Shown here piece after piece: positions 3,641 through 42,069 of a DNA stretch of 64,000 bases; position 1 is the first letter of the stretch; every line of letters begins with the position of its first letter. The notes under the pieces are model-generated. The model was not told where the DNA came from. It made no database searches and saw only the letters and a list, made by a program, of their open reading frames with translations. The DNA lies in assembly GCA_016186715.1 (NCBI GenBank), contig JACPLA010000021.1, forward strand, positions 640 through 64,639. Reading direction: 5' to 3'. The DNA comes from Ignavibacteriales bacterium (GTDB lineage Bacteria > Bacteroidota > Ignavibacteria > UBA10030). The translations under genes and the position numbers were made by a program.

Positions 3641-3820
3641 TATGTTTTACCCCCTTCTTCGCGGGGTGAGCCAAAAGGGACTAGCGGGTAAACTCAACAT
3701 TGATCCTAGTACCTTGGCGCGGTTGGAACGAGATGAAGGAAAACCGAGTTGCAAACTGAAAGAAAAGTTTATTGAGTTCTTTAAGAAAAGCCGCCTATGC
3801 AACGAGCGGATTGAAGAATA
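3641..3820 (+). pseudogene. 59-aa fragment matching the second HTH module of the tandem-HTH XRE family
   Basis: Translation MFYPLLRGVSQKGLAGKLNIDPSTLARLERDEGK... aligns with GITQKELARRIGIDPTTLSRLEKGKG of paralog A. The first HTH module is missing. Confidence 0.5.
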
Positions 3821-3897
3821 ACCAGAAAAAGGAGACCTGCAGAACTTTTGTGTGTCTGTAGCAGCAGGGGTAGGAAACGCGACTCGTGCATGCCAAG

Positions 3898-4773: not shown

Positions 4774-4781
4774 TCATCCTC

Positions 4782-5078: not shown

Positions 5079-5094
5079 TTGCGGACTCCTTCCT

Positions 5095-7250: not shown

Positions 7251-7257
7251 GTTTTTT

Positions 7258-8256: not shown

Positions 8257-8300
8257 AATTCAATCTTCACGCACTTCTGTGTTTTCATTTCTTTTTATCG

Positions 8301-9470
8301 TTAAGATAAATGATGCTCGAGTTGGAGAAGACTCTCCAAACTGTGCGCGGGCGCGAAAACGTCCGCGAAGGGGAGTGCAGCACTCATCCCGCGTGTGATT
8401 GGCTGGTACTCAGCAAGTCCAAGAAGAGGATTGAGCCAGATGAGCTTTCGGGCCCGACGCTTGATTGTTTGGAGTTGTTCTGTCAGCGCTTCAGGTTCAC
8501 CGGTGTCCCAGCCATCACTCATGATAATGACCAAAGAATTGCGCGAACGCAGTTTCCGAGCATGCAGCGTATTGAATTCCGCCAAACATTTACCGATGCG
8601 CGTGCCCCCGGACCAGCTCTCGACGTTCTGCGCAACCATCTGTAAAGCGTTGGAGAGTTGATGCGTTCGAAGTGCGCCTGAAATATCGGTTAGCCGCGTG
8701 CTGAAAACGAACGAATCGACGCGCTCAAAATACTGCTGCAGTGCATAGACGAATCGCAGGAGGAACAAGCTGTAGAGGTCCATCGATCCGCTGACATCTA
8801 GAAGCACGACCAGATTGATCTTTTGACGTTTTCTTTCCTTATAGTGCAGCGTCATCGGTTCTCCGCCGCGACTGAGGTTGGAACGAATCGTCCGCCTGAA
8901 ATCCAGACGGCCTCGTTCTCCATACTGTCGATACCTTCGCGTCAAGCGCTTGCTCATCTGTCGCCACAGCCGCAGGCAAAGTTGTTCCAGGAGAGGAAGG
9001 TCGGAAGCCGCCACCTCTGAGAAATCCATCTTTCTTAATCGCTCTTCTGCACTTGCTCCGGTGGTTGCCGTGAGATCGCCTTCCTCCTGGGACTTGCTGG
9101 CCTGCTCCAAAGCTCGGCGGTGTTCGTCTCCAATCACGGGCACTTCAATCCGAGAAGAAAGTACTTCCCTCTGCAGGTGGATTGTTTCAGTGGAGTTTCC
9201 CCAAAACTGTTCAAACAGCTGATCAAACTGTTCGTATTGTTCCCTTGAAGAGCAGAGGAGTGCGCGAAGCGAAGATTGAAATGCTTCGCGATCGGTAATC
9301 GTAACGAAGCGAGCAACTTCCAGGGCATCGATGGTTTCTTGTAAACCGACTTGAAAACTGTTTGCTCGCAAGAATCGGCAGAACTGAACGATCGTCTTGG
9401 TCACGATACCGTCGGAAAAGCCAGCACTTGCACGCACGGTCATGCTCTTTTGAGTCGGTTTCTTCATCAC
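8301..9470 (-). CDS. coxE: VWA-domain protein CoxE
   Basis: MIDAS motif LVVLLDVSGSMD. It sits immediately downstream of the MoxR ATPase within the cox cluster. Confidence 0.8.
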   Translation of the reverse strand: MMKKPTQKSMTVRASAGFSDGIVTKTIVQFCRFLRANSFQVGLQETIDALEVARFVTITDREAFQSSLRALLCSSREQYEQFDQLFEQFWGNSTETIHLQREVLSSRIEVPVIGDEHRRALEQASKSQEEGDLTATTGASAEERLRKMDFSEVAASDLPLLEQLCLRLWRQMSKRLTRRYRQYGERGRLDFRRTIRSNLSRGGEPMTLHYKERKRQKINLVVLLDVSGSMDLYSLFLLRFVYALQQYFERVDSFVFSTRLTDISGALRTHQLSNALQMVAQNVESWSGGTRIGKCLAEFNTLHARKLRSRNSLVIIMSDGWDTGEPEALTEQLQTIKRRARKLIWLNPLLGLAEYQPITRGMSAALPFADVFAPAHSLESLLQLEHHLS

Positions 9471-9500
9471 CTCATCGTCCTCGGTTCGCGTTTCAACATC

Positions 9501-10424
9501 TTAACTTTCGACTTGCGACAGGATGCTTGGAATATTTTCAGCCTTGAGTTTCGAAATATCTTCGTTCGATTTCAGAATACATCCCAGTGTTTCTTCCACG
9601 GTCATCTCGTCCAGCTTGGTTTTCTCAAGCGAGAGAAGGGCAGAAGTCCAATCAAGAGTCTCTGCAATGCCCGGCGGCTTCGAAAGATTTTTACCCCGCA
9701 CTGCTTGAATGAACTGGACGATTTGATTCGCCAACTCTCGTCCGATCTGCGGAAGTTTCTTGTGAACGATGTGCAGCTCCTTCTCAAGGCTTGGATAATC
9801 AATCCAATGATAGAGACAGCGCCTTCTCAAGGCGTCGCTTAACTCCCTTGTTCGATTAGAGGTGAGCACAACGTAGGGTACATGGGTCGCCTTGATTGTT
9901 CCCATTTCGGGGATTGTGATCTGAAAGTCGGAAAGAAGCTCCAGCAGAAATGCTTCGAACTCTTCATCCGCCCGGTCAATTTCGTCGATCAACAACACCG
10001 GCGAAGCATTTGTCGCACTAATGGCTCTCAGGAGCGGTCGCTCCAGAAGGAATTTAGCGCTGAAAATGTGTTTCTCTTTCTCTGCGATACTTGCTTCAGC
10101 ATGTTCCTGAATCTTGATGCTCAGTAACTGCTTCTGGTAATTCCATTCATAGACCGCCGAGTTGACATCCAGTCCCTCGTAACATTGGAGGCGAATGAGT
10201 TCCGTTCCGAGAAAAGAGGCTAACACATTCGCTGTCTCCGTCTTTCCGACGCCAGCGTGTCCTTCTATGAGCAGTGGTCTTTGAAGCTTGAGGAGAAGGT
10301 AGATGGCGGTGGCAAGAGGACGGTCGGCAACGTACTTTCGCTGTTCAAAGCCGCGCATCAAATTGTCAATATCGGAGAGGTGGTTCATTGGATTAAGGAA
10401 TTCTTTAGGCATCGAATTATTCAA
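9501..10424 (-). CDS. coxD: MoxR-type AAA+ ATPase CoxD
   Basis: Walker A GHAGVGKT and the MoxR architecture, 307 aa. Confidence 0.85.
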   Translation of the reverse strand: MNNSMPKEFLNPMNHLSDIDNLMRGFEQRKYVADRPLATAIYLLLKLQRPLLIEGHAGVGKTETANVLASFLGTELIRLQCYEGLDVNSAVYEWNYQKQLLSIKIQEHAEASIAEKEKHIFSAKFLLERPLLRAISATNASPVLLIDEIDRADEEFEAFLLELLSDFQITIPEMGTIKATHVPYVVLTSNRTRELSDALRRRCLYHWIDYPSLEKELHIVHKKLPQIGRELANQIVQFIQAVRGKNLSKPPGIAETLDWTSALLSLEKTKLDEMTVEETLGCILKSNEDISKLKAENIPSILSQVES

Positions 10425-10426
10425 AC

Positions 10427-11017
10427 CTAAGATGAAGTTGACTTTCCGAGGATACGGCCGAAGAACCGACCAATCACTTTGCCTGTTACACTCAGAACCA
10501 AAGGAAGAGCATTGACAGGCTGAGGGGTAGGTGCAAATGCGACTTCGCTCCCCGTCCCATTTTCTTGCGCCAACTTTGCTTGAAAAGATCTGGTGAACTG
10601 TTCGAAGACATGATTTGACACATCATCCATCATCCGCGAGCCGAACTGTGCAAGCCTGCCCGTTACCGTGATTTCCGTCGTGCCGGTGACTTCCGTTCTT
10701 CCCTCAGTCAACGAGCGAAGTTTTCCCACCATCTTCATCGTGGCGCCGCCGGAACCGCGAGGATCTTGCCCCTTACCAAGAAGTTCAATTTCATGAATTT
10801 GATTGTCGAGTCGTTCGATTTTCACCTCTCCATTAAATTGAGAAGTAATCGGCCCTACTTTGACGGTAATGGTCCCTTTGTACGTCCTATCGTCGATCGC
10901 TTCCGTGATCTGGGCTCCGGGCAGACAGCTTGCGACTTTTTTCAAGTCGCTAAGGAATGCCCACACCTTTTCAATCGGTTGTTTGACCTGAAACTGTTTT
11001 GTGCTGGTTGCATGCAT
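10427..11017 (-). CDS. coxG: SRPBCC-family CoxG
   Basis: 196 aa with a CoxG-like sequence pattern. It lies directly after coxL. Confidence 0.75.
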   Translation of the reverse strand: MHATSTKQFQVKQPIEKVWAFLSDLKKVASCLPGAQITEAIDDRTYKGTITVKVGPITSQFNGEVKIERLDNQIHEIELLGKGQDPRGSGGATMKMVGKLRSLTEGRTEVTGTTEITVTGRLAQFGSRMMDDVSNHVFEQFTRSFQAKLAQENGTGSEVAFAPTPQPVNALPLVLSVTGKVIGRFFGRILGKSTSS

Positions 11018-11150
11018 CTTGGCAGAATCCTGACTATGATATGGTAATAAAACAACAAAGAAGATACTGCATCCGTTCGGTTACGGACGCAGCATCTTCG
11101 ATGAGTACGATGAACTTTCCCTGCTTCTCAGCAGCATCGGATGAGCACGC

Positions 11151-13511
11151 TTACCGTTCCGCTGCGACGCCTTTCTCCTTCAGAATCTGCCACACCTTCC
11201 ACGGCGTCATGGGGATATCGATGTGTCGCACACCGAGATGCGCTAACGCATCGACGACCGCGTTGACAATGGCAGGTGGTGCGCCGACGGTCGCGGATTC
11301 GCCCACTCCCTTCGCACCGAGAGGATGATGAGGTGATGGCGTGCATGTCTTGTCCGTCTCCCACTTTGGAGTCTCTACGGCCGTGGGAAGAAGATAATCC
11401 ATGAAGCTCCCGCCTTGGATGTTTCCCTCTTCGTCGTAGTTGATCGCTTCGTACAATGCGGGCGCAAGTCCCATCGTCAATCCACCATGGATCTGACCTT
11501 CGACAATCATTGGATTGATGATGTTTCCGCAATCGTCCACCGCGACGAACCGGCGTACTTTCACTTCACCGGTCCCGCGGTCAATGTCTACGACACAAAT
11601 ATACGAACCAAACGGAAAGGTAAGATTCGGCGGATCATAATAGGAGACAGCCTCGAGACCCGCTTCCATTCCCTGAGGATGGTTCGTGTACGCCGCAAAC
11701 GCAATTTCCTGAATCGTTTTTGCTTTCTGAGGAGCCCCTTGCACGTAGAATTTTCCACGTTCCCAGACAAGATCTGCCTCACTGCATTCGAGGAGGTAGG
11801 CGGCAATCTTCTTCGCTTTGTCGCGGATTTTTCGAGACGCCATTGCTCCTGCCGCTCCTGCCGTGGGAGTCGAACGAGAGGCATATGTTCCCAGCCCGTA
11901 TGGCGCGGTGTCGGTATCCCCTTCTTCCACTTGAATGTCGTCAACGGGGATGCCGAGTTCTTCTGCAACGATCTGGGCATACGTTGTCTCGTGGCCCTGA
12001 CCTTGCGACTTCGTGCCAAATCGCGCAACCGCTTTGCCGGTGGGATGAATACGAATCTCACAGCTGTCGAACATCTTGATGCCAAGAATGTCAAACGTGT
12101 GGGAAGGTCCTGCGCCGACAATTTCCGTGAAGCTGCTGATTCCGATTCCCATCAGCTCTCCTTTCTTCCGCTTCTCGGCCTGTTCCTTTCGCAGCGCATC
12201 GTAACCGATGATCACTTTCGCCTTCTGGAGCGCCGCCTCGTAGTTGCCGCTGTCATATTCCCAGCCAAGCGCAGATTTGTAAGGGAATTTATTTGCGGGA
12301 ATAAAGTTCTTCATCCGCAATTCCGCCGGATCCATCTTCAAGTCGTGGGCAAGGACATCGACCATGCGCTCAATCGTGTGGACTGCTTCTGTGACTCGGA
12401 AGGAACAGCGATACGCGATTCCTCCGGGGGGTTTATTCGTATAGACACCATCTACTTCCGCAAAAGCTGTCTTAAAGTCGTAGGAGCCGGTTGCGATGGA
12501 GAACAGACCGGCAGGAAACTTTGATGGGTTCGCTGCGGCGTCGGCGTAGCCGTGATCAGCTATTGTCTTGATTCGAAGTGCCTGCATGGTTCCATCTTTC
12601 TTTGCAGCAATCTCGGCCGTGATGTGATAGTCACGAGCGAAGGAATCCGCCTGAATATTCTCCATGCGATCTTCGATCCACTTCACCGGCTTTCCGATCA
12701 GAACGGAGGCCGCCACCGCAATGACATACCCCGGATACACCGGCACCTTTCCACCGAATCCTCCGCCGATATCCGGAGAAATGATCTGAATCTTTTGTTC
12801 ACTGAGGCCAACGTGTCCCGCGACCAGAGCAAACACCGTCCTAATCGCGTGTGGCGCCTGGGTGGTCATCCAAACGGTAAGTTTCCCGCTGATCTTGTCA
12901 AAGCTCGCCACGCAGCCACATGTCTCGATTGAACAAACATGAATTCTGGGGAGGTACATGTCTTGCTTGACTGTCACATCTGCTTCCTTAAAAGCTGTCT
13001 CTGTTGCGGCCTTGTTACCAACCTCCCAATGGAAGATAAGATTGTCTTTTTTGTCTTTCTTGTCGGTTCGGAGGATGGGCGCACCGAGCTCCAGCGCTTT
13101 TTTCGGGTCCACAACCACGGGGAGCGGCTCATATTCTACTTCCACCGCCGCCGCACCGTCTGCAGCAATGTACCGGTCGGTGGCAATCACTCCCGCTACT
13201 TCCTGAGATTGGTACATCACCTTCTCAACCGGAAGAACCATCTGTGTGTCAGACATCAGCGTCGGCATCCAGTGCAGGTTGTATTGCTTCAGCATCTCAC
13301 CGGTTACGACGGCGAGGACACCGGGGATGGCCGTTGCTTTGGAGGTATCGATCTTTTTGATTTTCGCGTGTGCGTACGGGCTGCGGACGATGTCGAGGTA
13401 GAGCATCCCCGGCAATTTGACGTCGTCAACATAATTGCCCTTTCCCTGAATAAAGCGCGGATCTTCCTTGCGCTTCACGCTATGACCCATGCCTTGGATT
13501 TCAGTAGCCAT
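11151..13511 (-). CDS. coxL: form-I aerobic CO dehydrogenase large (molybdopterin) subunit CoxL
   Basis: 786 aa of the xanthine-dehydrogenase family. It contains the form-I active-site loop GGIAYRCSFR (the AYXCSFR signature). Confidence 0.9.
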   Translation of the reverse strand: MATEIQGMGHSVKRKEDPRFIQGKGNYVDDVKLPGMLYLDIVRSPYAHAKIKKIDTSKATAIPGVLAVVTGEMLKQYNLHWMPTLMSDTQMVLPVEKVMYQSQEVAGVIATDRYIAADGAAAVEVEYEPLPVVVDPKKALELGAPILRTDKKDKKDNLIFHWEVGNKAATETAFKEADVTVKQDMYLPRIHVCSIETCGCVASFDKISGKLTVWMTTQAPHAIRTVFALVAGHVGLSEQKIQIISPDIGGGFGGKVPVYPGYVIAVAASVLIGKPVKWIEDRMENIQADSFARDYHITAEIAAKKDGTMQALRIKTIADHGYADAAANPSKFPAGLFSIATGSYDFKTAFAEVDGVYTNKPPGGIAYRCSFRVTEAVHTIERMVDVLAHDLKMDPAELRMKNFIPANKFPYKSALGWEYDSGNYEAALQKAKVIIGYDALRKEQAEKRKKGELMGIGISSFTEIVGAGPSHTFDILGIKMFDSCEIRIHPTGKAVARFGTKSQGQGHETTYAQIVAEELGIPVDDIQVEEGDTDTAPYGLGTYASRSTPTAGAAGAMASRKIRDKAKKIAAYLLECSEADLVWERGKFYVQGAPQKAKTIQEIAFAAYTNHPQGMEAGLEAVSYYDPPNLTFPFGSYICVVDIDRGTGEVKVRRFVAVDDCGNIINPMIVEGQIHGGLTMGLAPALYEAINYDEEGNIQGGSFMDYLLPTAVETPKWETDKTCTPSPHHPLGAKGVGESATVGAPPAIVNAVVDALAHLGVRHIDIPMTPWKVWQILKEKGVAAER

Positions 13512-13543
13512 TGTTCGAATCTCCTTATGTTAAGACGAAAGCA

Positions 13544-14023
13544 TCATTTTTTTTCCGTCGCAATTTTTTCCGCCGCGTACCGAATCGCTTTGACGATATT
13601 GACATAGCCTGTGCAGCGGCAAAGATTTCCCGATATCCCCCATCGAATTTCTTCTTCCGAGGGATGAGAGTTGTTCTTCAGTAACGTGTAAGCACTCATC
13701 ATCATACCGGGCGTGCAAAAACCGCACTGGAGACCATGCTTTTCCCAGAAACCTTCTTGAATGGGATGGAGCGTTCCATTCTTTGCGAGACCCTCCACCG
13801 TAAGGACATCCCCTCCATCGGCTTGAACAGCGAGGACCGTGCAGGATTTTACCGCGCGTCCGTTAAGGACAATCGTGCAGGCACCGCAGTTGGTGGTATC
13901 ACATCCAATGTGAGTCCCAGTAAGGTTCAACACTTCTCTGACAAAGTGCACGAGTAACATCCGAGGTTGAACGTCGGCTTCATTCTTCACGCCGTTGACG
14001 GTCATTTGAATTCGGTGGTTCAT
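13544..14023 (-). CDS. coxS: CO dehydrogenase small [2Fe-2S] subunit CoxS
   Basis: CGACTV and GFCTPG iron-sulfur motifs, 159 aa. Confidence 0.9.
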
Positions 14024-14026
14024 GAT

Positions 14027-15601
14027 TTATTTCCCTCCTTTCGCACGTTCTACAGCTTGGTTGAGCGCGCGAACAGTCAGAGTCTTGACCATAGCTCGTT
14101 TGTACTCTGCAGGACCGCGAAGATCAGATGAGGGCTGCGAGGCTTTTGCTGCAAGGTCGCCCGCCTTCCCCATCAGATCGTCATCCGGTTTTTTCCCTCG
14201 CAATAATTCCTCTGCTTCCTTCGCCTGAATAACCGTAGGTCCAACGTTCGTCAATCCAATGCCGACCTTTTCTATCTTGTCACTCGTATCGAGCGTCAAT
14301 TGAACCGCTACGGCAGCAACGGCGAAATCCCCAACTTTTCGCTCAAGTTTAAAGTACGCGCCTCCGGTCCGTCCACCCGGAGTCCGCACACGAATTTCAG
14401 TAAGTATCTCATCCTGCTTGAGCGCTGTCTCAAACAATCCGGTAAAGAATTGGTTGATGGGAATTGTGCGCTCACCCTTGGCGCCCGTTACTACTACCTC
14501 TGCACCGAGAGCCACCATTGTTGCAGGATGATCATTGGCGGGATCCGCGTGAGCCAAATTTCCGCCAACGGTTGCCATGTTTCTCACAAGAGGATCGGCA
14601 ATGACTTTTGCAGTATCCGCGATGATCGGATACTTCGAACGAATCAGATCGGAAGCATCGAGGTCTGACTCGCGTGTCAGAGCGCCGATCCGGAGAAATC
14701 CTCCCGATTCTTTGATATAGCTCAGTCCATCGAGACGGTTGATGTCAATGAGCATTGGTGGCGTAGCCAACCTTAGTTTCATCATGGGGATGAGACTGTG
14801 GCCGCCGGCCAGAATCTTCGCGTTCTCTCCATGCTTTTGCAGCAGCGAGATCGCCTCGGAGAGCGTTGTGGGCCGGAAGTATTCAAATGAGGGCGGGATC
14901 ATTGTTGCCTCCATTCTTCCGTGAGGAGTTAAGTGAGAAAGGTAATACCTTCGGTAGTAAGGAACCTGCGGAATGTTTCCATCGATGTTGATAACGACTT
15001 TTACCCCCTCGAGCGACATCTCAAGAACCTTATCGATCAGTGTGTTCACCTGATCAGTGCCCATCCATTGTAACCTTCTGCGAACCAATAGCGCCGCAAG
15101 TCCATGCCAGGCCGACCAAATCGCAAGAGTTGTTGCTTCAGCATCAGATTGTCGATTTCCATTACGCGCCAGGCACGCCTGAACATCGTTCCGAAGGAGA
15201 TCTAACATTTGGTATGTTGTCTGTTTGACTTCTTCCTGGGAGCGATGTTGGGTGGGCTTCCGCATGATGAACATCAGGTCGTAATACTCCGGATACTTCA
15301 GAGCAAAATCAAAATAGATTCTGCCGTGCTTTCGAAGCCGCTCCAATGGTTCTGCTATCAACTCACGCTGTTGTTGAAACGCAACAAGTTTTTCGAAGGC
15401 ATCTTCGTATAAGTGGTAGAAGATGTCGTTCTTATCCTTAAAGTAGAGGTAAATCGAAGAGGGACTATATTCGATGTGGTGGGAGATTTTTCGGATGGTA
15501 ACGTTCTCGAATCCTTCTTCGAGAAATAAGCGCATCGCGGCATCAAGCACTTGCCTTTTGAATGCAGACTTTTCTCGCTGTTTTCGTTCGTCCAGGCCCA
15601 A
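14027..15601 (-). CDS. coxM: single ORF encoding a TetR-family HTH domain (aa 1-200) joined in frame to the FAD-binding medium subunit CoxM (from about aa 234)
   Basis: The N-terminus has a TetR HTH (VTIRKISHHIEYSPSSIYLYFKDKNDIF). CoxM begins at MIPPSFEYFRPTTLSEA...LAGGHSLIPMMKLRLA. There is no stop codon between the two parts. Confidence 0.8.
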   Translation of the reverse strand: MGLDERKQREKSAFKRQVLDAAMRLFLEEGFENVTIRKISHHIEYSPSSIYLYFKDKNDIFYHLYEDAFEKLVAFQQQRELIAEPLERLRKHGRIYFDFALKYPEYYDLMFIMRKPTQHRSQEEVKQTTYQMLDLLRNDVQACLARNGNRQSDAEATTLAIWSAWHGLAALLVRRRLQWMGTDQVNTLIDKVLEMSLEGVKVVINIDGNIPQVPYYRRYYLSHLTPHGRMEATMIPPSFEYFRPTTLSEAISLLQKHGENAKILAGGHSLIPMMKLRLATPPMLIDINRLDGLSYIKESGGFLRIGALTRESDLDASDLIRSKYPIIADTAKVIADPLVRNMATVGGNLAHADPANDHPATMVALGAEVVVTGAKGERTIPINQFFTGLFETALKQDEILTEIRVRTPGGRTGGAYFKLERKVGDFAVAAVAVQLTLDTSDKIEKVGIGLTNVGPTVIQAKEAEELLRGKKPDDDLMGKAGDLAAKASQPSSDLRGPAEYKRAMVKTLTVRALNQAVERAKGGK

Positions 15602-15713
15602 ATCGAAAAATCCTTTCAGAACTGAACGCTGTTCAGTTTCCGCACAGTGTACGATATTAAGAACCGTTTGTCAAGAGGGAGCTGTGTTTAAGATAAAAGC
15701 GGCAAGCGTTTCC

Positions 15714-16430
15714 TCAGATCCAACCAAAACGGATGAGAGTCTTGTTGACCCGCCAAGAAAATAGAGCTGCCATTCCGATAAGGACAATTGTGAGAACCGG
15801 ACTGAACGCTTGATAGACTTGCAATCCTACAACGATCGTTGTGATTACGATAAACAGGCAGAGACTTGCCAACCGCTTACGGAGGATTCGATGGGGCTTA
15901 AGCTCTCCGAAAAGTCCTTCCGGCACATTGGCATCAGAACTGACGGTCGCGATGAGTGCTTCGATTTTTGGCTGAAGCTTGAAATGAACGTACGAAAGCA
16001 ATATCATCAGTATGAACAAAAGAAGGACTTTTGTCAGCACAACCCAGTTTGCCCACAATGCCTCAATCCCCAGAGGACCGGCGAGTAGCAGTAGAATGCC
16101 GGTAACGAGTGCAGTCCATTGAAATACGTAACAGCGAATTGCTCCGTGTTGAATTATGTTTTCCATGTACCTGTCGGCAAAGTAATGAAAAGATGTTCCG
16201 AGAAGTGCCCGTTCGTTTACCGCAATGAGGTTAAATAGCGGTATCGACATGAAAACAAAGCTCAAGACATGCAAAAACTTTAAGAGATCATAAAGTAAAT
16301 GCATTGTAACCTCTTCTTTCTGTGTTAAGCATGAGATGGTAAATAAAGTCGACGGGCTGTTATTGGATAAACACCTAACAGAAAAGGAGGGCGTGGGCAC
16401 CATTGGCTGTCCCAGCCGCCGGCACTTCAC
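15714..16430 (-). CDS. polytopic membrane protein of unknown function at the head of the cox cluster
   Basis: Multiple hydrophobic helices. The start is likely the internal Met (MHLLYD...). Confidence 0.45.
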   Translation of the reverse strand: MKCRRLGQPMVPTPSFSVRCLSNNSPSTLFTISCLTQKEEVTMHLLYDLLKFLHVLSFVFMSIPLFNLIAVNERALLGTSFHYFADRYMENIIQHGAIRCYVFQWTALVTGILLLLAGPLGIEALWANWVVLTKVLLLFILMILLSYVHFKLQPKIEALIATVSSDANVPEGLFGELKPHRILRKRLASLCLFIVITTIVVGLQVYQAFSPVLTIVLIGMAALFSWRVNKTLIRFGWI

Positions 16431-16586
16431 CGTATTAGCGTACCCCCTATTGAAAAAGTGTTAGCAGGGTAGATTATGTTGACAATCTAAAACTAGTTCC
16501 GGTAAAATCAAACTCCCGTAAATTCTGTGCGGAGCAAAAAAGAACGAATAACCCACCATCGAACACCGCACCTCGAGTAGACCCCA

Positions 16587-17122
16587 TCACACAGAATAGA
16601 AGCTTCTATCCAGACTACTGTATTGAATGGCTTCGCTCAAATGCTCAGTCCTGATCTGATCACTTCCCACAAGGTCGGCAATGGTGCGTGAGACTTTCAA
16701 AATTCGGTCATAAGCCCTCGCCGAGAGGCCCAGCCGATTCATCGCCGTTTTCAGCAACTCTGCCCCCGCCGTATCGATCTGACAGAATTCCTTGATTTCC
16801 TTCGATTCCATGTCGGCGTTGCAATACAGGTCTTTTCGTTTTTCGAATCTGCCAGTTTGAACCCCCTCGCACGAACAACACGCTCACGTATGGCCGAGGA
16901 ATTCTCGCCCGAGCGCTTCGAGGAAAGCTCCGTGTATTTGACAGCAGGGACCTCGACGTGAATATCGATTCTGTCCAGCAATGGACCTGAAATCTTGCCA
17001 ACGTATTTCTGGATTTGCATCGGAGTGCACATGCATTCCTGATTCGGGTTTCCGTAATTGCCGCACGGACAGGGGTTCATTGCCTTTTTGCCATATTCGA
17101 CTTTCAGCGCCAAAACCATCAA
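16587..17122 (-). pseudogene. comM: comM/yifB (Mg-chelatase-like ATPase) C-terminal remnant, 5'-truncated and frameshifted
   Basis: Frames encode [46 protein letters not shown] and ...LSARAYDRILKVSRTIADLVGSDQIRTEHLSEAIQYSSLDR. The AAA+ N-terminal two-thirds is absent. Homology ends exactly where the HTH-paralog leader begins, near 17080. Confidence 0.75.
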
Positions 17123-17505
17123 AACTGCCTACTGTTCTGAACACTATCGGGGATCACATCAGAAAGCGACGGCTTGAGCTTGGACTTCTCCAGCGTGAGG
17201 TTGCAGACCGTCTCTCTGTCAAAGTCGACACCATTCTCAACTGGGAACACAACAGAACGGCACCAACGCTCCGATGCCTTCCAGGGGTGATCGCGTTCCT
17301 CGGTTACGATCCATCGGATGACAACCCAAGAACACTGGGCGAAAAGCTGATGAAATATGGGAAAAGTTGTGGCATGAGTCAAAAAGAAATGGCGAGCCGG
17401 ATTGGTATTGACGCAACAACGTTGAGCAGGTTGGAGAGAGATAAGGGCAGATGCTTTGATACGGTACTCAAGAAAGTTCATGACTTCTTGAACACGCATG
17501 AGTAA
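16981..17505 (+). CDS. tandem-HTH XRE-family regulator, paralog B
   Basis: Shares the leader (ttgcctttttgccatattcgactttcagcgccaaaaccatcaaaactgcctactgttctgaac) and the protein core with paralog A. The real start is probably downstream of 17100. Confidence 0.65.
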
Positions 17506-17568: not shown

Positions 17569-18168
17569 TTAATTACGCAACACTTCGGTCACTTGTGCTT
17601 GCCATGCTTTGATCACTTCTTCTGTGGTCTTAATTTCAGCGCCATAATTTGTCTTGAGATATTCGAGCCCCTCATTGTGGGCTTTTTCGTCGAATGCTTC
17701 AACGCCATCCTGCAAAATAACCAGATTGTAGCCTCTGAAAAATGCATCGGCAGAAGTATGGCGATCACAGATGTTTGTATGTAAGCCAGTGACATACAGC
17801 TTTGTCACGGCAAGGCTTCGCAGGAGTTGGTCGAGACCAGTCTCGAAAAATGCTGAGTAGGTGCGTTTTTCAAACTGATAATCTGGGGGTCCTGGTCTTA
17901 ACTCGGGAATCACCTCCGCGCCCGCGGATCCCTTCATGGCATGCTCACCCCATACACGAAGTTCAAAATCCTCCCTTAAATGCGCATCTCCAGCATAAAT
18001 CACAGGAACACCTTTCTTCCGAGCTTCTGCCAGAAATTTCATGAGATTGGGAATAATCCTATCTGCCCGTTCGCAGCGCAACTTTCCCGTGACAAAATCA
18101 TTGAGCATATCAATAACGAGAACCGCCTCGGGTTTTCTTGCCATAGGTCTTTCGCTCCTTTCTTTCAC
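17569..18168 (-). CDS. isochorismatase-family cysteine hydrolase (nicotinamidase-like)
   Basis: VLVIDMLNDF ... catalytic Cys in LYVTGLHTNICD. Confidence 0.8.
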   Translation of the reverse strand: MKERSERPMARKPEAVLVIDMLNDFVTGKLRCERADRIIPNLMKFLAEARKKGVPVIYAGDAHLREDFELRVWGEHAMKGSAGAEVIPELRPGPPDYQFEKRTYSAFFETGLDQLLRSLAVTKLYVTGLHTNICDRHTSADAFFRGYNLVILQDGVEAFDEKAHNEGLEYLKTNYGAEIKTTEEVIKAWQAQVTEVLRN

Positions 18169-18231
18169 GCTATCAACTGTTGTGATCCAAGGTAGTCAAA
18201 GTGGGAAGGTAAATCAAGGACCCTGCTGTAA

Positions 18232-20487
18232 CTACTCGTGGTAAAATAATTGATCAAAAGCGTACCTCACGCTTAGGTACGCGCCTCTTCCTCTCGTTGT
18301 AAAACCGTTTATTTCGGAGTACTTGGTGTCAAAGACATTCTCTATTCGAGCGCTCACCGAAAGATGTTCATCAACGTGATATCGCTGCGACAGGTCCAGA
18401 AGCGCATAGTCCGCCACCGGGGTACTTGCTAGAGCGCCATAAGGGCCGAGCTTTGAACTATAAAAGATATCGCTTCGCGCACCGACATATCTCATATCAA
18501 TCCTGAGAGCAAGGCGTTCAGTTGGCATATATATCAGACTCAGGTTTGCAGTGTTAGGTCTACGAACCAATCCTAACGTTTCCACTTCTTTTGTGATGAA
18601 TGCCCCATTGCTATACACCTGGACGTGGTTTCCGTCGGTCTGTGGAGTAGCAATGCTATTAGGGTTGTACGTTAATTTCCCGCTTACCAAGCTCAAGTTG
18701 CCTGAAAAAAACAAATGATCGGTTATCATGGAAGTGATCGTAAACTCGATGCCGTTGGTCGTTTGCTTACCCACGTTCAAATATGTATCTCCCCTGAAGT
18801 CGTCCCGAACCCAACTGTTGCCCAGCGTATCTATACCGATATTCTTATCCCAGAGGTACACGTTCTCAATGGCATCCTCAACGATGGTGTTAAAGTAAGC
18901 AACAGACAGACTCATACCCTTGCCAAGTTTTTGCTTAAAGCCGATCTCGTATGAAGCTGAGTTTTCCGGTTTCAGCTTCCTATTCCCCCTTGTGATGCCG
19001 GAAATATAGTTCTTGTCGGGTGCATACAGTTGGTAAAGCGATGGAGCGTTGAAGCCGGTTGAGTAGGAGGCATACAAGAGCGCATCGCCTCCGATTCTCA
19101 GCGATGGATTGATCTCGTAAGTAATATTTACGCCATAGGCGCTGTGGTCATTCAAACGCGCACCTAGTCCGATTGAAAACGGACTGAACATTTCATCCAC
19201 CAAGCTGCCATTCACGTTAACGTGCGCGAAGATGTTTCTGGTCGATGAGTTCAAATTCAATGTATCAAGATCTGATCTCGACTCATAGACACCGAAGGCG
19301 CTTCTCGAATAGAAATACGTCTTTGAGGTCATCGTTTCCGTGTACAGACCGCCACCCAATATACCTTCGAAATTTTTCAGTTTCAGGTTTCCCTGGATCT
19401 CATTGGTCAATGTTGTTCCCTTCCAGGTGCCATCGAAATACGTGTGGTCGGTCGTTCCCATGTTGTCCACAATCGAAGAATCATCGACTGCAACCCTTTT
19501 CATATCAGAATAACCACCAAGATACTTGATGCTGAGCTTATCACTAAGTTTGTAGGAAGCACCATAGGTAAATAGGTTCCTTCTAAAATTCAGCGTGTAG
19601 TTATCGTCATCCCTATACGCACTTTTGTCGATATCGGTCCTGTGAGTGGTATTCTTGTATGAAGCATAAACGTCGAGCCGGTCGTTTCTGAAGCCAACTT
19701 TGCCGACGACGTCTCTCTTATGGAAGCCATCTTTATCCCGATTTTTGAAGATGGCCAGATTCGTCACCGTATCTACTGTGGCGTCTAACCCCCTGACATT
19801 GGAATTGTTGATCTCCGTGTTGACATAAAGACCTGCGGGATCGGTATAATTCAAAAAGAGATTTGCAGAGAACGCTGAAGTTCCTTCGCCGAAGGTTCCC
19901 GTTTTCAACTCTACATCGGTATTGAATCCTGGCTTTCTGTTCTTCTCCGTAGCAATGTTCACGGCGCCACCGATAGCTGAGGAACCATAGAGTGTGCTAT
20001 GAGAACCTCTCACAATCTCGATGCGGTCAGCGGCTGCAAACGATAGTTCAGACAAATCGAGCGCATTATTCACACCTGAGGGATCCGTGATGCGGACTTC
20101 ATCGATCATAATCGTCGTTTGATTGCTTGCCGCGCCCCGGGTAAACATGCTTTGGAGCATTCCCGGATTCTGTCCGGTACCGACGACGTACAGACCTTCC
20201 TGTTGTGAGAGTAATTCCGCAACGCTGGCATAAGTGGAATTCTTCATCTGCTCTTTCGTAAGTAGCGTAATGCTTCTTCCCACTTCCATAGGATTCCTCT
20301 CACTCCGGGTGGCGGTTACGACTATTTCCTGAAGTTGATAAACTTTAACGGTATCCGCACTGGTTGAATCGTTAACAGCCTCGTTGGCAGACATCAACAC
20401 TGAGCCGGCACGAAATTCAGATAGGCCTTGTGCTCCTGCGCGAGCGGCAAGCAACCCCATTACGGAAAGTATAGCAATGCTCTTCAT
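18232..20487 (-). CDS. TonB-dependent outer-membrane receptor
   Basis: 751 aa with a signal peptide, a plug domain (IEIVRGSHSTLYGSSAIGGAVNI), a long beta-barrel and a C-terminal aromatic residue. Confidence 0.85.
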   Translation of the reverse strand: MKSIAILSVMGLLAARAGAQGLSEFRAGSVLMSANEAVNDSTSADTVKVYQLQEIVVTATRSERNPMEVGRSITLLTKEQMKNSTYASVAELLSQQEGLYVVGTGQNPGMLQSMFTRGAASNQTTIMIDEVRITDPSGVNNALDLSELSFAAADRIEIVRGSHSTLYGSSAIGGAVNIATEKNRKPGFNTDVELKTGTFGEGTSAFSANLFLNYTDPAGLYVNTEINNSNVRGLDATVDTVTNLAIFKNRDKDGFHKRDVVGKVGFRNDRLDVYASYKNTTHRTDIDKSAYRDDDNYTLNFRRNLFTYGASYKLSDKLSIKYLGGYSDMKRVAVDDSSIVDNMGTTDHTYFDGTWKGTTLTNEIQGNLKLKNFEGILGGGLYTETMTSKTYFYSRSAFGVYESRSDLDTLNLNSSTRNIFAHVNVNGSLVDEMFSPFSIGLGARLNDHSAYGVNITYEINPSLRIGGDALLYASYSTGFNAPSLYQLYAPDKNYISGITRGNRKLKPENSASYEIGFKQKLGKGMSLSVAYFNTIVEDAIENVYLWDKNIGIDTLGNSWVRDDFRGDTYLNVGKQTTNGIEFTITSMITDHLFFSGNLSLVSGKLTYNPNSIATPQTDGNHVQVYSNGAFITKEVETLGLVRRPNTANLSLIYMPTERLALRIDMRYVGARSDIFYSSKLGPYGALASTPVADYALLDLSQRYHVDEHLSVSARIENVFDTKYSEINGFTTRGRGAYLSVRYAFDQLFYHE

Positions 20488-20514
20488 AATTACTCCTTGC
20501 TGAGTGATTCGGAA

Positions 20515-21198
20515 TTATTTATTAACAAGAGATAGTTTTTTCACTTTGAGATACATCATCGAATCCTTTGTTTCCTTTGAGAAGTCGTTGAGGACGATTG
20601 TACGTCTGAAGAGCGGAAAGTCCAGCACAGTGGTATGGTATTCGCCATTTTCGCCACAAAGATCCATTCCTGTTTCTTCGCTTATTTCGTACAACCGCTC
20701 AGCGGCTTTCGTATCAAGGTCACAGCCTGGCCAACTGTCAGTCAACAAAGGCCGTTTCACACACGAAAAAATCACTTTGAAGTTATTCGTTATCAGTTTT
20801 TCAAGAAGTTCCTTTCGATTCCGTTTCCATAGCGGCGTCACGACTTCAATCCCGACAAAGGCTGCACATTCTTTTACCCAATTTGGATGAGCACGTATCT
20901 CATCGATATCACCTGTGATAACAACTGAGACCCCACGCTGCTCTTTCAAGGACCGAAGGGCTGATTTGTATACTTCGTTGAACGGTTGGGTAATTTCGAT
21001 GGTCCGATGGAGAATCTGGAGAGCCTCTGCCTGATATTTCATTACATGCACAGGGTGAGCGAGAAATCGCGGATTTGAGGGCGCGAAGGTAATCAGCCCT
21101 TTGATCTCATAGCCGAGGCTTTGGGCTTCATACAGTGCCAGACAGGAATCTTTACCGCCGGTCCATAATACAACGGCACTGCCTAAGAGCTGATTCAC
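20515..21198 (-). CDS. DUF71/MJ0570/Dph6-like PP-loop ATP pyrophosphatase, copy 2
   Basis: PP-loop WTGGKDS and the GENGEYHTTV motif. It overlaps the upstream paralog by 4 nt. Confidence 0.75.
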   Translation of the reverse strand: MNQLLGSAVVLWTGGKDSCLALYEAQSLGYEIKGLITFAPSNPRFLAHPVHVMKYQAEALQILHRTIEITQPFNEVYKSALRSLKEQRGVSVVITGDIDEIRAHPNWVKECAAFVGIEVVTPLWKRNRKELLEKLITNNFKVIFSCVKRPLLTDSWPGCDLDTKAAERLYEISEETGMDLCGENGEYHTTVLDFPLFRRTIVLNDFSKETKDSMMYLKVKKLSLVNK

Positions 21199-21956
21199 AC
21201 GCTTCTCCCTGACTCAGCAATGGGGATTAAATCGCAATACCAAAAGCCATTGTCAAAAGGCTTAGAGCCGCTGCTATTGCAGGCATATTGAGAATTGCCG
21301 TCCTGTTGTGTTGGTAGATATTTTCGATGTACGATCTCGCCGACTTCGAATTCTATCGGCTTTTTGAAAAGAGGGCCGTCGTAGACAAATGAATGAAATT
21401 CCCCGTACTCCCCGCAGGGATCGACATTGTCAGGGAGATCCTTGATGAAAGAATCATCAATAGCACGTCCCACGAAGGACTTATCTAGGAATCTATCGTT
21501 CACACACACGGTGGTTGCCTTAAACCCCAGCTCAATGAACTCTCGCATCAACTGATGAGTTGAAATCTTCCAGAGCGGAAAGACGGCGTTCAGGTTTAGC
21601 TCGGCGAGTTTGTTTTCCCTGTACTTGCGGAGATCTTCCAGGAAAATATCGCCAAAGACACAGACTTCCGTGCCGCTATTCTTCAGCCTTACCAGCGTTT
21701 CCTTCATGATAGTTTCATACGTCTTCATATCGGGCATCTCTGGGATGAGCATTTTGACCAGGGGTATTCCAATGCTTGAAGCCTGTTCATCAAGCAGCTC
21801 AACTCTGACCCCGTGCATAGAAATCCGACGGTACTGCTCGTTAACACTGGTGAGCAACCAAGAAACAGAGTGTTCTCCAAGTGTTAAGACCTTATGTAGG
21901 CACAGAGCGGAATCCTTACCGCCGCTCCAATTGAATACTGCTTTCTGCTTTTGCAC
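21195..21956 (-). CDS. DUF71/MJ0570/Dph6-like PP-loop ATP pyrophosphatase, copy 1
   Basis: PP-loop NWSGGKDS and the GEYGEFHSFV motif. Confidence 0.75.
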   Translation of the reverse strand: MQKQKAVFNWSGGKDSALCLHKVLTLGEHSVSWLLTSVNEQYRRISMHGVRVELLDEQASSIGIPLVKMLIPEMPDMKTYETIMKETLVRLKNSGTEVCVFGDIFLEDLRKYRENKLAELNLNAVFPLWKISTHQLMREFIELGFKATTVCVNDRFLDKSFVGRAIDDSFIKDLPDNVDPCGEYGEFHSFVYDGPLFKKPIEFEVGEIVHRKYLPTQQDGNSQYACNSSGSKPFDNGFWYCDLIPIAESGRSV

Positions 21957-22035
21957 AATTCAGACCGACGTATTGTAATCGTAGCTCCCGCATTCGATGA
22001 CAGGCGAGCTTATTTTGAAGCAGTTATTTGTTCAA

Positions 22036-22956
22036 TCACATTTTCATCCATCCTGATCGACAATGCTTCGCTGGAAACAGATCAGGGTGAAATACCTCAG
22101 CAAGTATTTCCAGAGAGTCTACTAATCTTGGGCCGGGGCGATTGAAATAGTGACTCCCTTCACCGATATACACCTCATGCTCTCGCACTGCCTTGAGTGC
22201 ATTCCATCCGCGTTTCTTTTCCAAAAAGGGCATATCCTTTAATGACCGCTGAATTGAAAATCCGCAGGGTGCAATGAGGATCTTATCCGGATCCTGTAGG
22301 ATGAGGTCCTCAAAACCGATCCAGCGCTTACCGTCATCAAGAAAGACATTCGAACCGCCAGCCATCTCTATCAATGGTATCATCCAGTGTCCTGCGACCA
22401 TAATCGGTTCGATCCATTCGATATGTGCGACCCGAGGGTGATGGGAGCATTCTTTTGTCTTGGACTGCACATCTTCAAATGATGTCTTCATCTTGCTGAC
22501 TACTTCGTTGCCTTTTCGTTGAACATCGAGATGACCTGAGACAAGCACAATGTTTTCCAATACCTGTTCCAGGCTCTTTGGATTCAAGTCTATGACAGTA
22601 ATATTGTCTTGGTGAAGACATTCATTGAGTGCCTCTCTCAATTCATCTGTGCTCACAGCACAGACCGCACATTGTGACTGCGTAATAATGTGCGTCGGTT
22701 CGAGTGCCCTGATCCTTTCCACATTGACCCTGTAGATTGATAGAGCCTCCCGCAGTATTACGCTCACTTCCCTGCTGATCTCAGGACTCGTTCCGCTTGA
22801 CCGGTACTTCGGCTGGCTGCAAACAGGAAGCTGCTCAATACCAGGAGGATAATCGCATTCATGCGAACGCCCGACAAGCCGATCCTTCAAGCCGAGCGAA
22901 CAAACAATTTCTGTTGCGCTGGGTAGCAACGAGATGATGCGCTGTTGTGGCGCCAA
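22036..22956 (-). CDS. BtuF/TroA-like (class III) substrate-binding-fold protein without a signal peptide
   Basis: IISLLPSATEIVCSLGL...GRSHEC matches BtuF-type cobalamin/siderophore binding proteins. Only 15 nt separate the start from the upstream gene, which leaves no room for a leader peptide. Confidence 0.65.
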   Translation of the reverse strand: MAPQQRIISLLPSATEIVCSLGLKDRLVGRSHECDYPPGIEQLPVCSQPKYRSSGTSPEISREVSVILREALSIYRVNVERIRALEPTHIITQSQCAVCAVSTDELREALNECLHQDNITVIDLNPKSLEQVLENIVLVSGHLDVQRKGNEVVSKMKTSFEDVQSKTKECSHHPRVAHIEWIEPIMVAGHWMIPLIEMAGGSNVFLDDGKRWIGFEDLILQDPDKILIAPCGFSIQRSLKDMPFLEKKRGWNALKAVREHEVYIGEGSHYFNRPGPRLVDSLEILAEVFHPDLFPAKHCRSGWMKM

Positions 22957-22971
22957 GGCCCGTTTCCTGAC

Positions 22972-23511
22972 TTAGATCCGGGATTCCGCCAAGGCCGGAA
23001 TTTTATGTTGTGCGAACTCAAATGAGCCGAAGAGCAGGCCGGAGTAGAAAAGAGCGCTCAACACAGTATTGCTAAAGAATGGTATCGCTGCGATGTAACA
23101 TTGAGCTAGTCCTGTCATGTTCATCGGATACAAGTGTCCTCCAGCCCATACCGCGAAATTCGTTATGATAAAGAATACGATTGAACCAGCCACCGAGGCG
23201 GCAATAATGTTGACGATTTTCAGACGATGCCGTAAGAGAAATCCCATCGTTGTCATCAAAGAGAAACATCCATAAATCACCAAACGCATCGCCGTGAAAA
23301 ACTCGTAGCCCTTAAGAAAGGCCAAACCAATATCGCTTAACACCATCGCAGCAAGGGGAACAACGTAGGCTGTTCTCCTGTCGGTAAAATAAGATCCTCC
23401 GAATAAGGCAAGAGCAATCATCGGCGTAAAGTTTGGGGGGTGTGGAATGAGTCGTGAAGCTACGGCCGCCAGCACCATTGAGATTAGGACCGTAATGCGG
23501 CTCTTAAGCAT
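22972..23511 (-). CDS. small polytopic membrane protein, possibly an ECF-type S-component
   Basis: 179 aa with 5 to 6 hydrophobic helices. It has a good RBS (aaaggagtaatcttATG) and is the first gene of the minus-strand operon. Confidence 0.45.
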   Translation of the reverse strand: MLKSRITVLISMVLAAVASRLIPHPPNFTPMIALALFGGSYFTDRRTAYVVPLAAMVLSDIGLAFLKGYEFFTAMRLVIYGCFSLMTTMGFLLRHRLKIVNIIAASVAGSIVFFIITNFAVWAGGHLYPMNMTGLAQCYIAAIPFFSNTVLSALFYSGLLFGSFEFAQHKIPALAESRI

Positions 23512-23608
23512 AAGATTACTCCTTTCTTGAATGATGAAGGATTTTGTAAGTTGGGGGGACTTTAATCACTTGCCTAGAATACGTTTGTGAATTCAGTGTT
23601 TTCGGCAA

Positions 23609-23641
23609 ACAAAAAAACCCCAACCTTCGAAAAGATTGGGG
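23609..23641 (-). terminator. rho-independent terminator on the minus strand (ccccaatcttttcgaaggttgggg followed by a T7 run)
   Basis: Perfect 8-bp GC-capped stem plus a T-run when read on the minus strand. It lies upstream of the uptake-operon promoter. Confidence 0.45.
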
Positions 23642-24240
23642 TTCAAGAAGTCAAGAAAAAGAAATATTCTCACTCGGGCGAACACCTTCCCTCGAAGGTT
23701 TCAAGCTGCTACGACTTGGCAGGTCTCCTGGCTTTCTCGATCCTTGATCGTCTTCCCATCCCGACTGTTGTCGGCACAGTGACGTTCGTGATCAAAGAGG
23801 AAATCTCACATTGGGTGAGTCGAGATCACAGTTGCGGGGCAGCTTCCGAATGTATCACGGAATTCCCTTTTCATCCCGGGCATTGCTTGCCGGGACACCA
23901 AATCATTCCATGTGAAAGAACGGTAATTCTTCGTCGCACGCCTATGTACAAAGATTCTCGACAAATGTCAAGAGATTGCAAGAGGGACAACCAAGATGGT
24001 GATGAACGGTCAGCAAGACCTCTTCTCGATGAGTGGTAGGGTACAAGCAATCAAGGGTCCCTAGTCTTTCTCACTTCGTGGACGAAATCCAAAGCGGGCT
24101 TTTTCAAAAGGCTCAAGACTGCATTTTCATACGTCGCGGTCCCTTTGCAGAACTACCCGAGTTATTTCAGGGGCCTTTTGGGAAACCATGCATGATATAG
24201 CATTCTCTCTTCAGGTTCTCAGCGGCGTTAACCAACAGGG

Positions 24241-24774
24241 TTGCGTTGCCAGAGTACGGGTCGGGTCGTCCTTACGGCCAAACGGCCAAAATCATCAGAA
24301 TTCCTTAAATCGCTCATTTCTCTGGGTGATCACATCAGAGCAAGGCGGCTTGAATTGAAGTTTTTGCAGAAGGACGTGGCTCGGGTTATTGGAGTCGATG
24401 AGACGACTGTCTACAATTGGGAGCGGGGGTATACAAGTCCGACGCTTAGGTATGTGCCGAGGATTCTGGATTTCCTGGGTTATGATCCGGCTCCCGCGGA
24501 GCCGAGGACGCTGGGAGAGAAATTGCTGAAGTATCGGAAGGACCGCGGGATAACTCAGAAGGAGCTTGCCCGGCGCATTGGGATTGACCCAACGACGCTG
24601 AGCAGGTTGGAGAGGACCAGCAGCAAGCGGGTTTTCCGAAGTGTTTTGCTGAAGGTTGAGGACTCTCTTCGCAAATGCTTCTGTGCGATCCTCGAGATCA
24701 TACTGTTTGCCCATAGAGCCCCCCTTTGGGAAGCACGAAATATCAAATCCGAAATACGAAACAAAAACAGATAA
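24241..24774 (+). CDS. tandem-HTH XRE-family regulator, paralog C; its 3' end reads through into unrelated sequence
   Basis: The core [47 protein letters not shown] is identical to paralog A at protein level and almost identical at DNA level. The C-terminal approximately 40 aa are not HTH-like. Confidence 0.65.
   Translation: MRCQSTGRVVLTAKRPKSSEFLKSLISLGDHIRARRLELKFLQKDVARVIGVDETTVYNWERGYTSPTLRYVPRILDFLGYDPAPAEPRTLGEKLLKYRKDRGITQKELARRIGIDPTTLSRLERTSSKRVFRSVLLKVEDSLRKCFCAILEIILFAHRAPLWEARNIKSEIRNKNR
24655..24714 (-). pseudogene. 20-codon stub of a four-helix-bundle (23S-IVS/Avd-like) protein gene
   Basis: MGKQYDLEDRTEAFAKRVLN compares with MKYDLEERLTNFAVRII of the intact copy at 41575. Nucleotide identity is high (ta[c/t]gatctcgagga). 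Confidence 0.35.
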
Positions 24775-42063: not shown

Positions 42064-42069
42064 GGAGGC

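Follow-up and report, generated by a model that had tools for sequence, protein, structure and literature searches.

Introduction

In the survey of Durrant et al. 2022 (PMC10083194), Mg-chelatase/comM genes are the commonest target of large serine recombinases. In Wolbachia, phage WO sr1WO uses the Mg-chelatase gene as its integration site, and its rearranged prophages carry a piece of the gene on each part (PMC9203015). Here, we describe a 64,000-nucleotide stretch of the genome of an Ignavibacteriales bacterium (assembly GCA_016186715.1, contig JACPLA010000021.1, positions 640 to 64,639; hereafter the window), in which the 3' third of a comM gene abuts HTH-B, a small gene on the opposite strand that encodes two helix-turn-helix (HTH) domains. 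The comM fragment and the start of HTH-B are probably the distal (attR-type) junction of a family of site-specific integrative islands that target the PCPC codons 352-355 of comM. The islands resemble the described serine-recombinase elements in the target gene family, in the gene pieces that flank the element, and in the PCPC core, which is shared with two recombinase-bearing loci, L088 and L051. They differ from them in three respects. The serine-recombinase elements disrupt the gene and carry their own recombinase, whereas the islands of the window type leave comM intact in relatives by means of a second 3' copy, contain no recombinase and place a stand-alone double-HTH gene beside the core. 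Where the usual insertions break comM, the loci described here thus point to an island family that keeps it whole and is always accompanied by the small HTH gene.

The islands at ssrA of Dehalococcoides are arranged in tandem, are partly devoid of recombinases and are bounded by repeats of the 3' end of the gene; they have been compared with the staphylococcal cassette chromosome (SCC), and cis-mobilisable elements and accretion have been invoked for them (PMC3146451). These islands and the SCC and pseudo-SCC elements of the CcrB family (PMC3146451, PMC11470126) are similar to the comM islands in that tandem arrays of cargo lie downstream of a single-copy gene, with 3'-end repeats bounding the units. 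Integration genes are absent from some of the units, for which mobilisation in cis or in trans has been proposed, and the target gene stays functional. The major difference is the length of the repeat, which amounts to about 20 bp at ssrA or to the last codons of rlmH in SCC, as opposed to 495 nucleotides (nt), a third of the gene, in the comM islands. Furthermore, many ssrA and SCC units carry a recombinase module beside attL while the comM islands carry none, and the HTH gene at the comM junction has no counterpart in these systems.

At icd of Escherichia coli, the elements e14 and phage 21 supply a replacement 3' end, and the original end survives as a pseudo-fragment at the far junction. 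The comM islands share with e14 a target gene kept intact by the 3' end of the element and a displaced pseudo-fragment; by contrast, e14 encodes a tyrosine integrase, replaces a shorter segment and does not form arrays of recombinase-less cargo units. In Acinetobacter, AbaR/Tn6022 elements enter comM by Tns-protein transposition, which generates a 5-bp duplication and leaves the gene split and inactivated. There too comM is a preferred landing site for accessory-gene islands, but Tns proteins, a 5-bp duplication and a split, inactivated comM are features of none of the islands described here. While comM as a serine-recombinase target and arrays bounded by 3'-end repeats are both known already, the literature searched gave no description of a form that combines a replacement end of 495 nt with cargo units devoid of recombinases and with an HTH gene that is embedded in the junction and related to a recombinase tail.

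The comM fragment and its junction with HTH-B

The comM fragment of the window (fragment B, 16587-17083, minus strand) is a pseudogene that covers ComM residues 349-513 and the stop codon, the end of which lies at 16587; the full ComM of relatives has about 513 residues. When the full-length ComM proteins of two relatives (L002 and L005) were compared with the window by tblastn, only residues 349-513 were matched, in two pieces (E 2e-70). Pfam recognises Mg_chelatase (PF01078, profile positions 155-206 of 207, E 1e-19) in one frame and Mg_chelatase_C (PF13335, positions 30-93 of 94, E 2e-24) in a different one. The AAA+ Mg_chelatase domain is incomplete, as only its last profile positions are present; the N-terminal Lon-like ChlI domain (PF13541) was not found by Pfam, and tblastn with a 513-residue ComM gave nothing N-terminal of residue 349 in the window. 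Fragment B is a gene fragment and not a working form of a ComM/YifB family member. According to the tblastn pieces and a three-frame translation, the frame switches between 16856 and 16880, where a run of five C residues (16862-16866; G5 on the coding strand) sets the comM reading frame off by one base. This frameshift is a single 1-nt indel and, as it sits in a homopolymer, could be either real or a sequencing error.

Homology to comM stops at 17083, the first base of codon A349 in the motif AMNPCPCG. The junction, or att core zone, spans comM codons 349-355 (AMNPCPC; 17063-17083), with the PCPC codons, which read (CCNTGY)2, at 17063-17074. HTH-B (17080-17505, plus strand) starts within this zone at a TTG codon, so that position 17080 overlaps comM codons 349/350 on the opposite strand. 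It encodes 141 amino acids with two XRE-type HTH domains and is the terminal gene of the island to its right (island Y). The product is 99% identical over all 141 residues to NCBI MBI2618772.1, whose annotation takes the same TTG start, and its N-terminus LPFCH is kept in L002, L014, L019 and L031. Both HTH-B and the paralogue HTH-C described below contain two stretches of HTH_3 (PF01381; E 5e-17 and 5e-24).

An earlier note on this sequence had proposed that only the C-terminal third of comM survives, in frameshifted form, and that homology ends at about 17080, where HTH-B begins. Both statements hold, and the observation as such is real and far beyond chance. What the note took for a conserved leader of HTH-B is the N-terminal coding part of the gene, as synonymous differences to relatives show. 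The missing 5' portion of comM, which the note suggested might lie beyond 24.8 kb, was not found there or elsewhere in the window by tblastn; the window covers nearly all of the source contig (65,162 nt). A search of the window for the usual neighbours of comM, namely nuoH/I, dus, polX, nth and HD, found none of them, and a scan of a viral collection with the comM fragment found nothing. In the vicinity of the fragment, a near-consensus sigma-70-type promoter (TTGACA-18-TAAAAT, 11/12; 16450-16508, plus strand) is aimed through the antisense of comM at HTH-B, 570 nt downstream. The scan for such sites, which is uninformative for this phylum, gave sites on that strand only at 16450-16508 and no promoter-like site towards HTH-B within the fragment.

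The same junction in related genomes

Relatives were collected by a search with the repaired comM fragment followed by look-ups of the loci, and the argument rests on the loci only. An excess of homologues of 164-166 residues (67 of the best 120) was considered as proof of a conserved short gene and was dropped as sole evidence; one of them, P0001, is an intact comM cut by a contig start.

The junction between the HTH gene and comM codons 349-513 is found again, nearly unchanged at the base level, in about ten further assemblies or metagenome populations. A comM copy starting at residue 349 next to a divergent HTH gene is present in L001 (twice), L002/3/4, L005/L097, L012, L014 and L019, and further in L031, L090/91, L092 (twice), L093/94, L098 (the same as L099) and L100. 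The hosts are relatives in Ignavibacteriota and Bacteroidota and one metagenome-assembled genome (MAG) of Kryptoniota (L031). The ancestral gene order in relatives is nuoH-nuoI-comM-dus-polX, and three loci (L006, L010, L011) represent the empty site (attB), in which nuoI, comM and dus follow one another with an uninterrupted core. In occupied loci, an intact comM of 512-519 codons is followed by 5-10 kb of unrelated cargo, an opposite-strand double-HTH gene and a comM copy that begins at residue 349. Every contig of sufficient length shows the intact comM at the opposite island end (L002/L003, L005/L097, L012, L019), and in L014 its 3' part is visible. L002/L003 and L005/L097, which are Ignavibacteria-like, have dus after the displaced copy; L012, L014 and L019 have the same island structure with no nuoI or dus nearby. 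Tandem arrays with two HTH-comM units each occur in L001, L092 and L135, and L098 combines one such unit with a further comM 3' fragment at the contig end.

In the occupied relatives, 495 nt of the target are present twice, with the intact comM at the near end, and only attR-type junctions were seen. The arrangement expected of an element that replaces the 3' end of its target, an intact gene at one end and a displaced 3' pseudo-copy at the other, is present in L002/3, L005/L097, L012 and L019; the window itself contains only the displaced copy and no intact comM. Because intact comM lies at the other island end in the relatives, the best explanation of fragment B is a duplicate 3' end that has been displaced and lies at a recurrent junction, that is, an insertion scar rather than the product of a one-off deletion.

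These loci bear directly on the proposal of the earlier note that foreign DNA had replaced the 5' part of comM. In its strict form, this explanation says that a single foreign segment starting with HTH-B was inserted into comM, that the 5' two thirds were deleted or overwritten, and that the genome is left without a working comM, the fragment being the sole remnant. The window offers some grounds for it, as no other comM sequence exists in its 64 kb, fragment B is frameshifted, and the array lies away from the normal place of comM, with its right end abutting core genes. On the other hand, the position of the junction and the partner gene are identical in some ten other assemblies or populations, with an intact comM a few kilobases away where it can be seen, two more junctions with shorter comM remnants exist in the same window, and the absence of comM from a 65-kb contig of a MAG says little. 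A one-off loss is therefore unlikely. The note had itself held that its idea would fall if the fragment were a duplicate of an intact gene; this is what the relatives indicate, even though no intact comM was found in the window. Alignment to intact comM loci, as it had recommended, placed the endpoint at the PCPC core and revealed a duplicated 3' end of 495 nt. An assembly chimera was rejected since the junction recurs in independent assemblies.

The note called comM a classic insertion hotspot; the hotspot in question, that of the Tn7-like AbaR elements of Acinetobacter, differs in mechanism from the one indicated here. A Tn7-like transposon of the AbaR/Tn6022 type is nearly inconceivable as the source of the window junction, despite comM being a known target of that family. 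There are no TnsA/B/C or TniQ-like genes among the scanned open reading frames (ORFs) of the window or of the islands examined, on which gene content the candidate was rejected, and the target is duplicated over 495 nt and not split with a 5-bp duplication.

The cargo of the relatives' islands includes a histidine kinase with a LytTR regulator, glycosidases, Czc efflux, many proteins with type IX secretion system (T9SS) tails, a TonB-dependent receptor and radical-SAM enzymes. No integrase or recombinase was found in the roughly dozen islands of the HTH type examined. The sole integrase seen is a tyrosine integrase located 4 kb from the HTH gene of L095, a locus without a recognisable piece of comM.

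Three junctions in one window

HTH-B is one of three double-HTH genes in the window that stand at a junction. HTH-A (2521-2967, plus strand; 148 amino acids, NCBI MBI2618757.1) has a 1-nt deletion that puts the junction TTG out of frame. Upstream of it, about 52 nt of decayed comM (codons 349-366; 2491-2542, minus strand) have been retained. The boundary of the repeat shared by copies A and B had been equated with the truncation point of comM, which is not the case: the repeat continues for about 50 nt into the comM piece (2491-2542 against 17031-17083, about 64% identity by our own count), because copy A has a decayed comM remnant of its own. A local alignment spanning this stretch scores 117, compared with at most 26 in shuffles. 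HTH-C (24241-24774, plus strand) is of the LRCQSTG junction type, is about 76% identical to the first HTH protein of L001 and stands at the end of a further island. Upstream of it (24236-24249), only about 14 nt of core and comM-like sequence, CAGGGTTGCGTTGC, are left, and the alignment with the L001 junctions, which scores 98 against at most 29 for shuffles, stops at 24236; the comM 3' copy expected at this junction is gone. The comM remnants upstream of the HTH genes thus measure 497 nt at B, about 52 nt at A and about 14 nt at C.

Pairwise comparison of the three intact HTH genes gives a synonymous divergence (dS) of at least 1 and a ratio of nonsynonymous to synonymous divergence (dN/dS) of about 0.2. 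These values argue against recent local duplication and fit independent acquisitions of a gene under constraint. A patch within HTH-A (2785-2906) is nevertheless 93% identical over 122 nt to HTH-C (24502-24623), and largely identical over about 110 nt, while the genes overall have a dS of about 1; this suggests gene conversion between the two paralogues, which are 21.7 kb from each other. A fourth HTH copy (3499-3827, plus strand) is a 5'-truncated pseudogene with stops and frameshifts, recognised by tblastn and translation. Some 46 codons are missing from its start, and an ORF for a T9SS-tail fragment (3034-3444) lies next to it. Just to the left of junction A, a response-regulator receiver domain is apparently split over two frames (1931-2455, minus strand), making it another frameshifted pseudogene.

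The core and the divergence of comM copies

No junction has its transition from element-specific sequence to host comM farther than about 10 nt from codons P352-C353-P354-C355, which form the repeat (CCNTGY)2. Element-specific ends are exemplified by ...GGCAGAATG GCAACGCAAC... and, for the window-B type, by ...GGCAAAAAG. When eight fragment junctions, eight intact genes and the window copies A and B were aligned, all junctions of the relatives fell in the zone equivalent to 17063-17083, and the crossover can be placed only to within about 20 nt. The sharp switch at the core holds across hosts whose comM genes are only 60-75% identical.

The comM copies within one locus can be strongly diverged. 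The two tandem fragments of L001 differ with a dS of 1.13 and a dN/dS of 0.03; the L002 fragment differs from its own intact copy with a dS of 0.56 and a dN/dS of 0.11, about three times the dN/dS between intact genes (0.03); and the L014 copies are only 75% identical. These figures support the view that the copies have different origins and are not local duplicates, with most of the divergence having arisen under selection within a working comM and the constraint having been relaxed afterwards. In L005, L019 and L012, the displaced 3' copy matches the intact one without a difference over the first 395, about 215 and about 85 nt counted from the core, respectively, after which the two diverge sharply. 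The tracts always begin at the core and may reflect one-sided gene conversion from it.

An alternative to the scar would be a functional module of two genes, made up of the 166-residue C-terminal part of ComM and the divergent HTH gene; one might be a regulator and the other a subunit that interferes with or assists ComM. Most fragments of relatives have an open frame all the way from the junction to the native stop, gene callers report them as proteins of 164-166 residues, junctions of the ATQ type provide an in-frame ATG from the element end, and dN/dS between fragments is low. The last point would be expected anyway if the divergence predates displacement, and the raised dN/dS of the L002 fragment points the other way. 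Of the window copies, B has a frameshift, and only short remnants are left of A and C. Decay is also visible in the relatives, with two further truncated 3' remnants in L012, a 12-residue insertion in L031 and a truncated first fragment, and hence first unit, in L135, and some of the '164-aa proteins' are contig-start artefacts of intact genes. A functional module is therefore highly improbable. Many 166-residue 'magnesium chelatase family' or 'ATP-binding' proteins of these phyla that start at the junction (MATQPC...) are probably displaced gene ends and not genes.

A possible link to large serine recombinases

Three loci emerged when viral contigs were scanned with aligned HTH proteins. In two of them, L087 and L088, the double-HTH module forms the C-terminal 130 residues of a protein of 684-707 residues with Resolvase, Recombinase and Zn_ribbon_recom domains. 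HTH-B aligns with this C-terminal extension at 36-50% identity from its first residues onward (LPRAH-RLS compared with LPFCHIRLS). L088 is a prophage with terminase and DnaB genes that is joined to the 5' part of comM at ...AMNPCPC, which is the same core in an attL configuration. In L051, from Bacteroidota, a serine recombinase gene reads into the same core, with the junction before CCATGTCCATGCGG. In other phyla, comM is split at around residue 281 (ALVGGG) and around residue 318 (L089, L039, L048, L058, L075), and serine-recombinase genes abut the break in L089 and L075.

The following model would account for the junctions. The island circle would carry the core, comM codons from about 352 to 513, the cargo and the HTH gene. 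Recombination with the chromosomal core would keep comM intact by joining the native 5' part to the island-borne 3' part, and the previous 3' end would be pushed to the far side beside the HTH gene and decay there. Repeated insertion could stack units into tandem arrays. In the window, junction B would close the island with the B12 riboswitch, the TonB-dependent receptor and the DUF71 genes, and junctions C and A would close neighbouring units. With less certainty, a comM-specific large serine recombinase supplied in trans may mobilise the islands. This appears to be the most likely mechanism given the homology of the island HTH protein to a serine-recombinase tail, the presence of recombinases at the same core and the published cases. 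The stand-alone HTH protein would then probably bind the arm beside the core as a specificity, directionality or regulatory factor.

The same islands might also have arisen by other kinds of recombination. Either a tyrosine integrase could act in trans, as for e14 and phage 21 at icd, or the islands could have ceased to move site-specifically and spread by homologous recombination, for which the flanking comM and comM'-dus regions would provide the homology; the locus would then be a hotspot for cargo. Tyrosine-integrase elements typically replace a long 3' gene end and leave a displaced pseudo-end, no recombinase was found in any of the islands examined, the identity tracts between fragment and intact gene in L005, L012 and L019 show ongoing homologous exchange, and L095 has its tyrosine integrase 4 kb from the HTH gene. 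Against this, the only conserved island gene is a homologue of the serine-recombinase extension, and two serine-recombinase elements occupy the same core. The switch between element and host is sharp and has one and the same position even in distant hosts, whereas homologous crossovers would be scattered, and the 3' ends of tandem units are strongly diverged at synonymous sites. No tyrosine integrase lies beside the att site in the islands examined. Taken together, such routes are unlikely, if slightly less so than a single loss of comM.

Several observations weigh against the interpretation preferred here. A recombinase gene with Resolvase, Recombinase and Zn_ribbon_recom domains was not found in the window or in any HTH-type island examined. 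The model predicts that the array ends rightward in an intact comM after nuoI; HTH-C instead precedes a gene for a 605-residue protein and core genes, and the window holds no intact comM, no attL-type junction and none of the usual neighbours of comM, its array abutting core genes from apaG onward. This unexpected right end could be the result of a rearrangement, as in phage WO, of a secondary site or of a mis-join in the MAG. In one locus, L089 (9711-10411), the same HTH arm is attached, in inverted orientation, to the 5' half of comM. An arm equal to the 3' half of comM would make the island site look like attR, and characterised serine integrases are not known to recombine attR with attB. 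Replacement coding sequence of 495 nt is better known from tyrosine-integrase elements. A drop in identity at codon 349, which would mark a chimeric gene, was looked for in the intact comM of occupied genomes; control pairs show the same difference between 5' and 3' parts.

A wider and tentative extension, which we consider possible but doubtful, would see comM as the anchor of a recombinase-less cassette platform in Ignavibacteriota and neighbouring lineages of the Fibrobacteres-Chlorobi-Bacteroidetes (FCB) group. Each cassette would consist of a spare comM 3' end, a cargo of one to several genes and a double-HTH adaptor that starts in the att core. The adaptor would be the detached DNA-binding tail of a recombinase and would borrow the recombinase of a resident or incoming phage, so that cassettes could stack and shuffle without inactivating comM. 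This would amount to an accretion system similar to integrons or SCC, with a serine recombinase and a protein-coding target. The cargo seen comprises T9SS-secreted proteins, metal efflux and B12 uptake. If the islands are mobilised in trans, this would explain the movement of operons for B12 uptake, metal efflux and secreted enzymes among uncultured Ignavibacteriota; it would also provide a case from nature in which the recognition module of a serine integrase is split, as well as new attB/attP pairs for integrase engineering.

Cargo and surroundings

Island Y (17569-23917, minus strand) lies between junctions B and C. It encodes a DUF6580 protein, a periplasmic binding protein, two DUF71/Dph6-like enzymes, a TonB-dependent receptor and an isochorismatase-family protein, as assigned with Rfam and Pfam. 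A cobalamin riboswitch (RF00174; 23701-23917, minus strand) scores 91.4 bits against an Rfam gathering threshold of 31.5 over the full model (1-189). It heads a single minus-strand operon upstream of DUF6580, the Peripla_BP_2 binding protein and the TonB-dependent receptor. The GC content of 46-49% at 15-25 kb, compared with 53-58% in the core genome further right, bears out the earlier suggestion that foreign DNA, the TonB/DUF71 module included, stretches to the right from HTH-B. The TonB-dependent receptor protein is on record only on a 3-kb Logan contig. The two adjacent DUF71/Dph6-like ATP pyrophosphatases under B12 control are an unusual pairing.

On the other side of fragment B, the segment designated island Z in the model (3898-16430, minus strand) encodes a DUF2157-like membrane protein and a CO-dehydrogenase/molybdenum-cofactor cluster, as identified by Pfam. 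Within it, a TetR regulator and a CoxM-type FAD-binding subunit share one uninterrupted frame of 524 codons (14027-15601, minus strand), which represents either a fusion or two genes without an intervening stop.

The gene adjoining HTH-C (25073-26890, minus strand) encodes a protein of 605 residues without a Pfam or PHROG match. The protein is 76% identical to the product of the gene after the last comM fragment of L001 (17290-19116), a Bacteroidota MAG. This gene accompanies comM-island junctions in both the window and L001, yet on opposite sides of the junctions; comparison with L001 found no comM remnants upstream of it, and the upstream sequences are unrelated. The core genes apaG, surE, panB, lipB, lpxA/C/D, ompH, bamA, uppS, clpB and gltA follow to the right.

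No recombinase or transposase domains were found among the sizeable ORFs of the window that were scanned, and the window contains no tRNA genes. Within 41435-42073, a 45-nt repeat in two copies (98% identical) and long imperfect inverted repeats flank a gene for a 23S_rRNA_IVP four-helix protein (41521-41931), and a similar repeat lies ahead of the next ORF (42061-42498). Close to the right end of the window, a 31-nt unit is repeated in tandem three times (81-87% identical; 63203-63295) next to an ORF with a T9SS tail.

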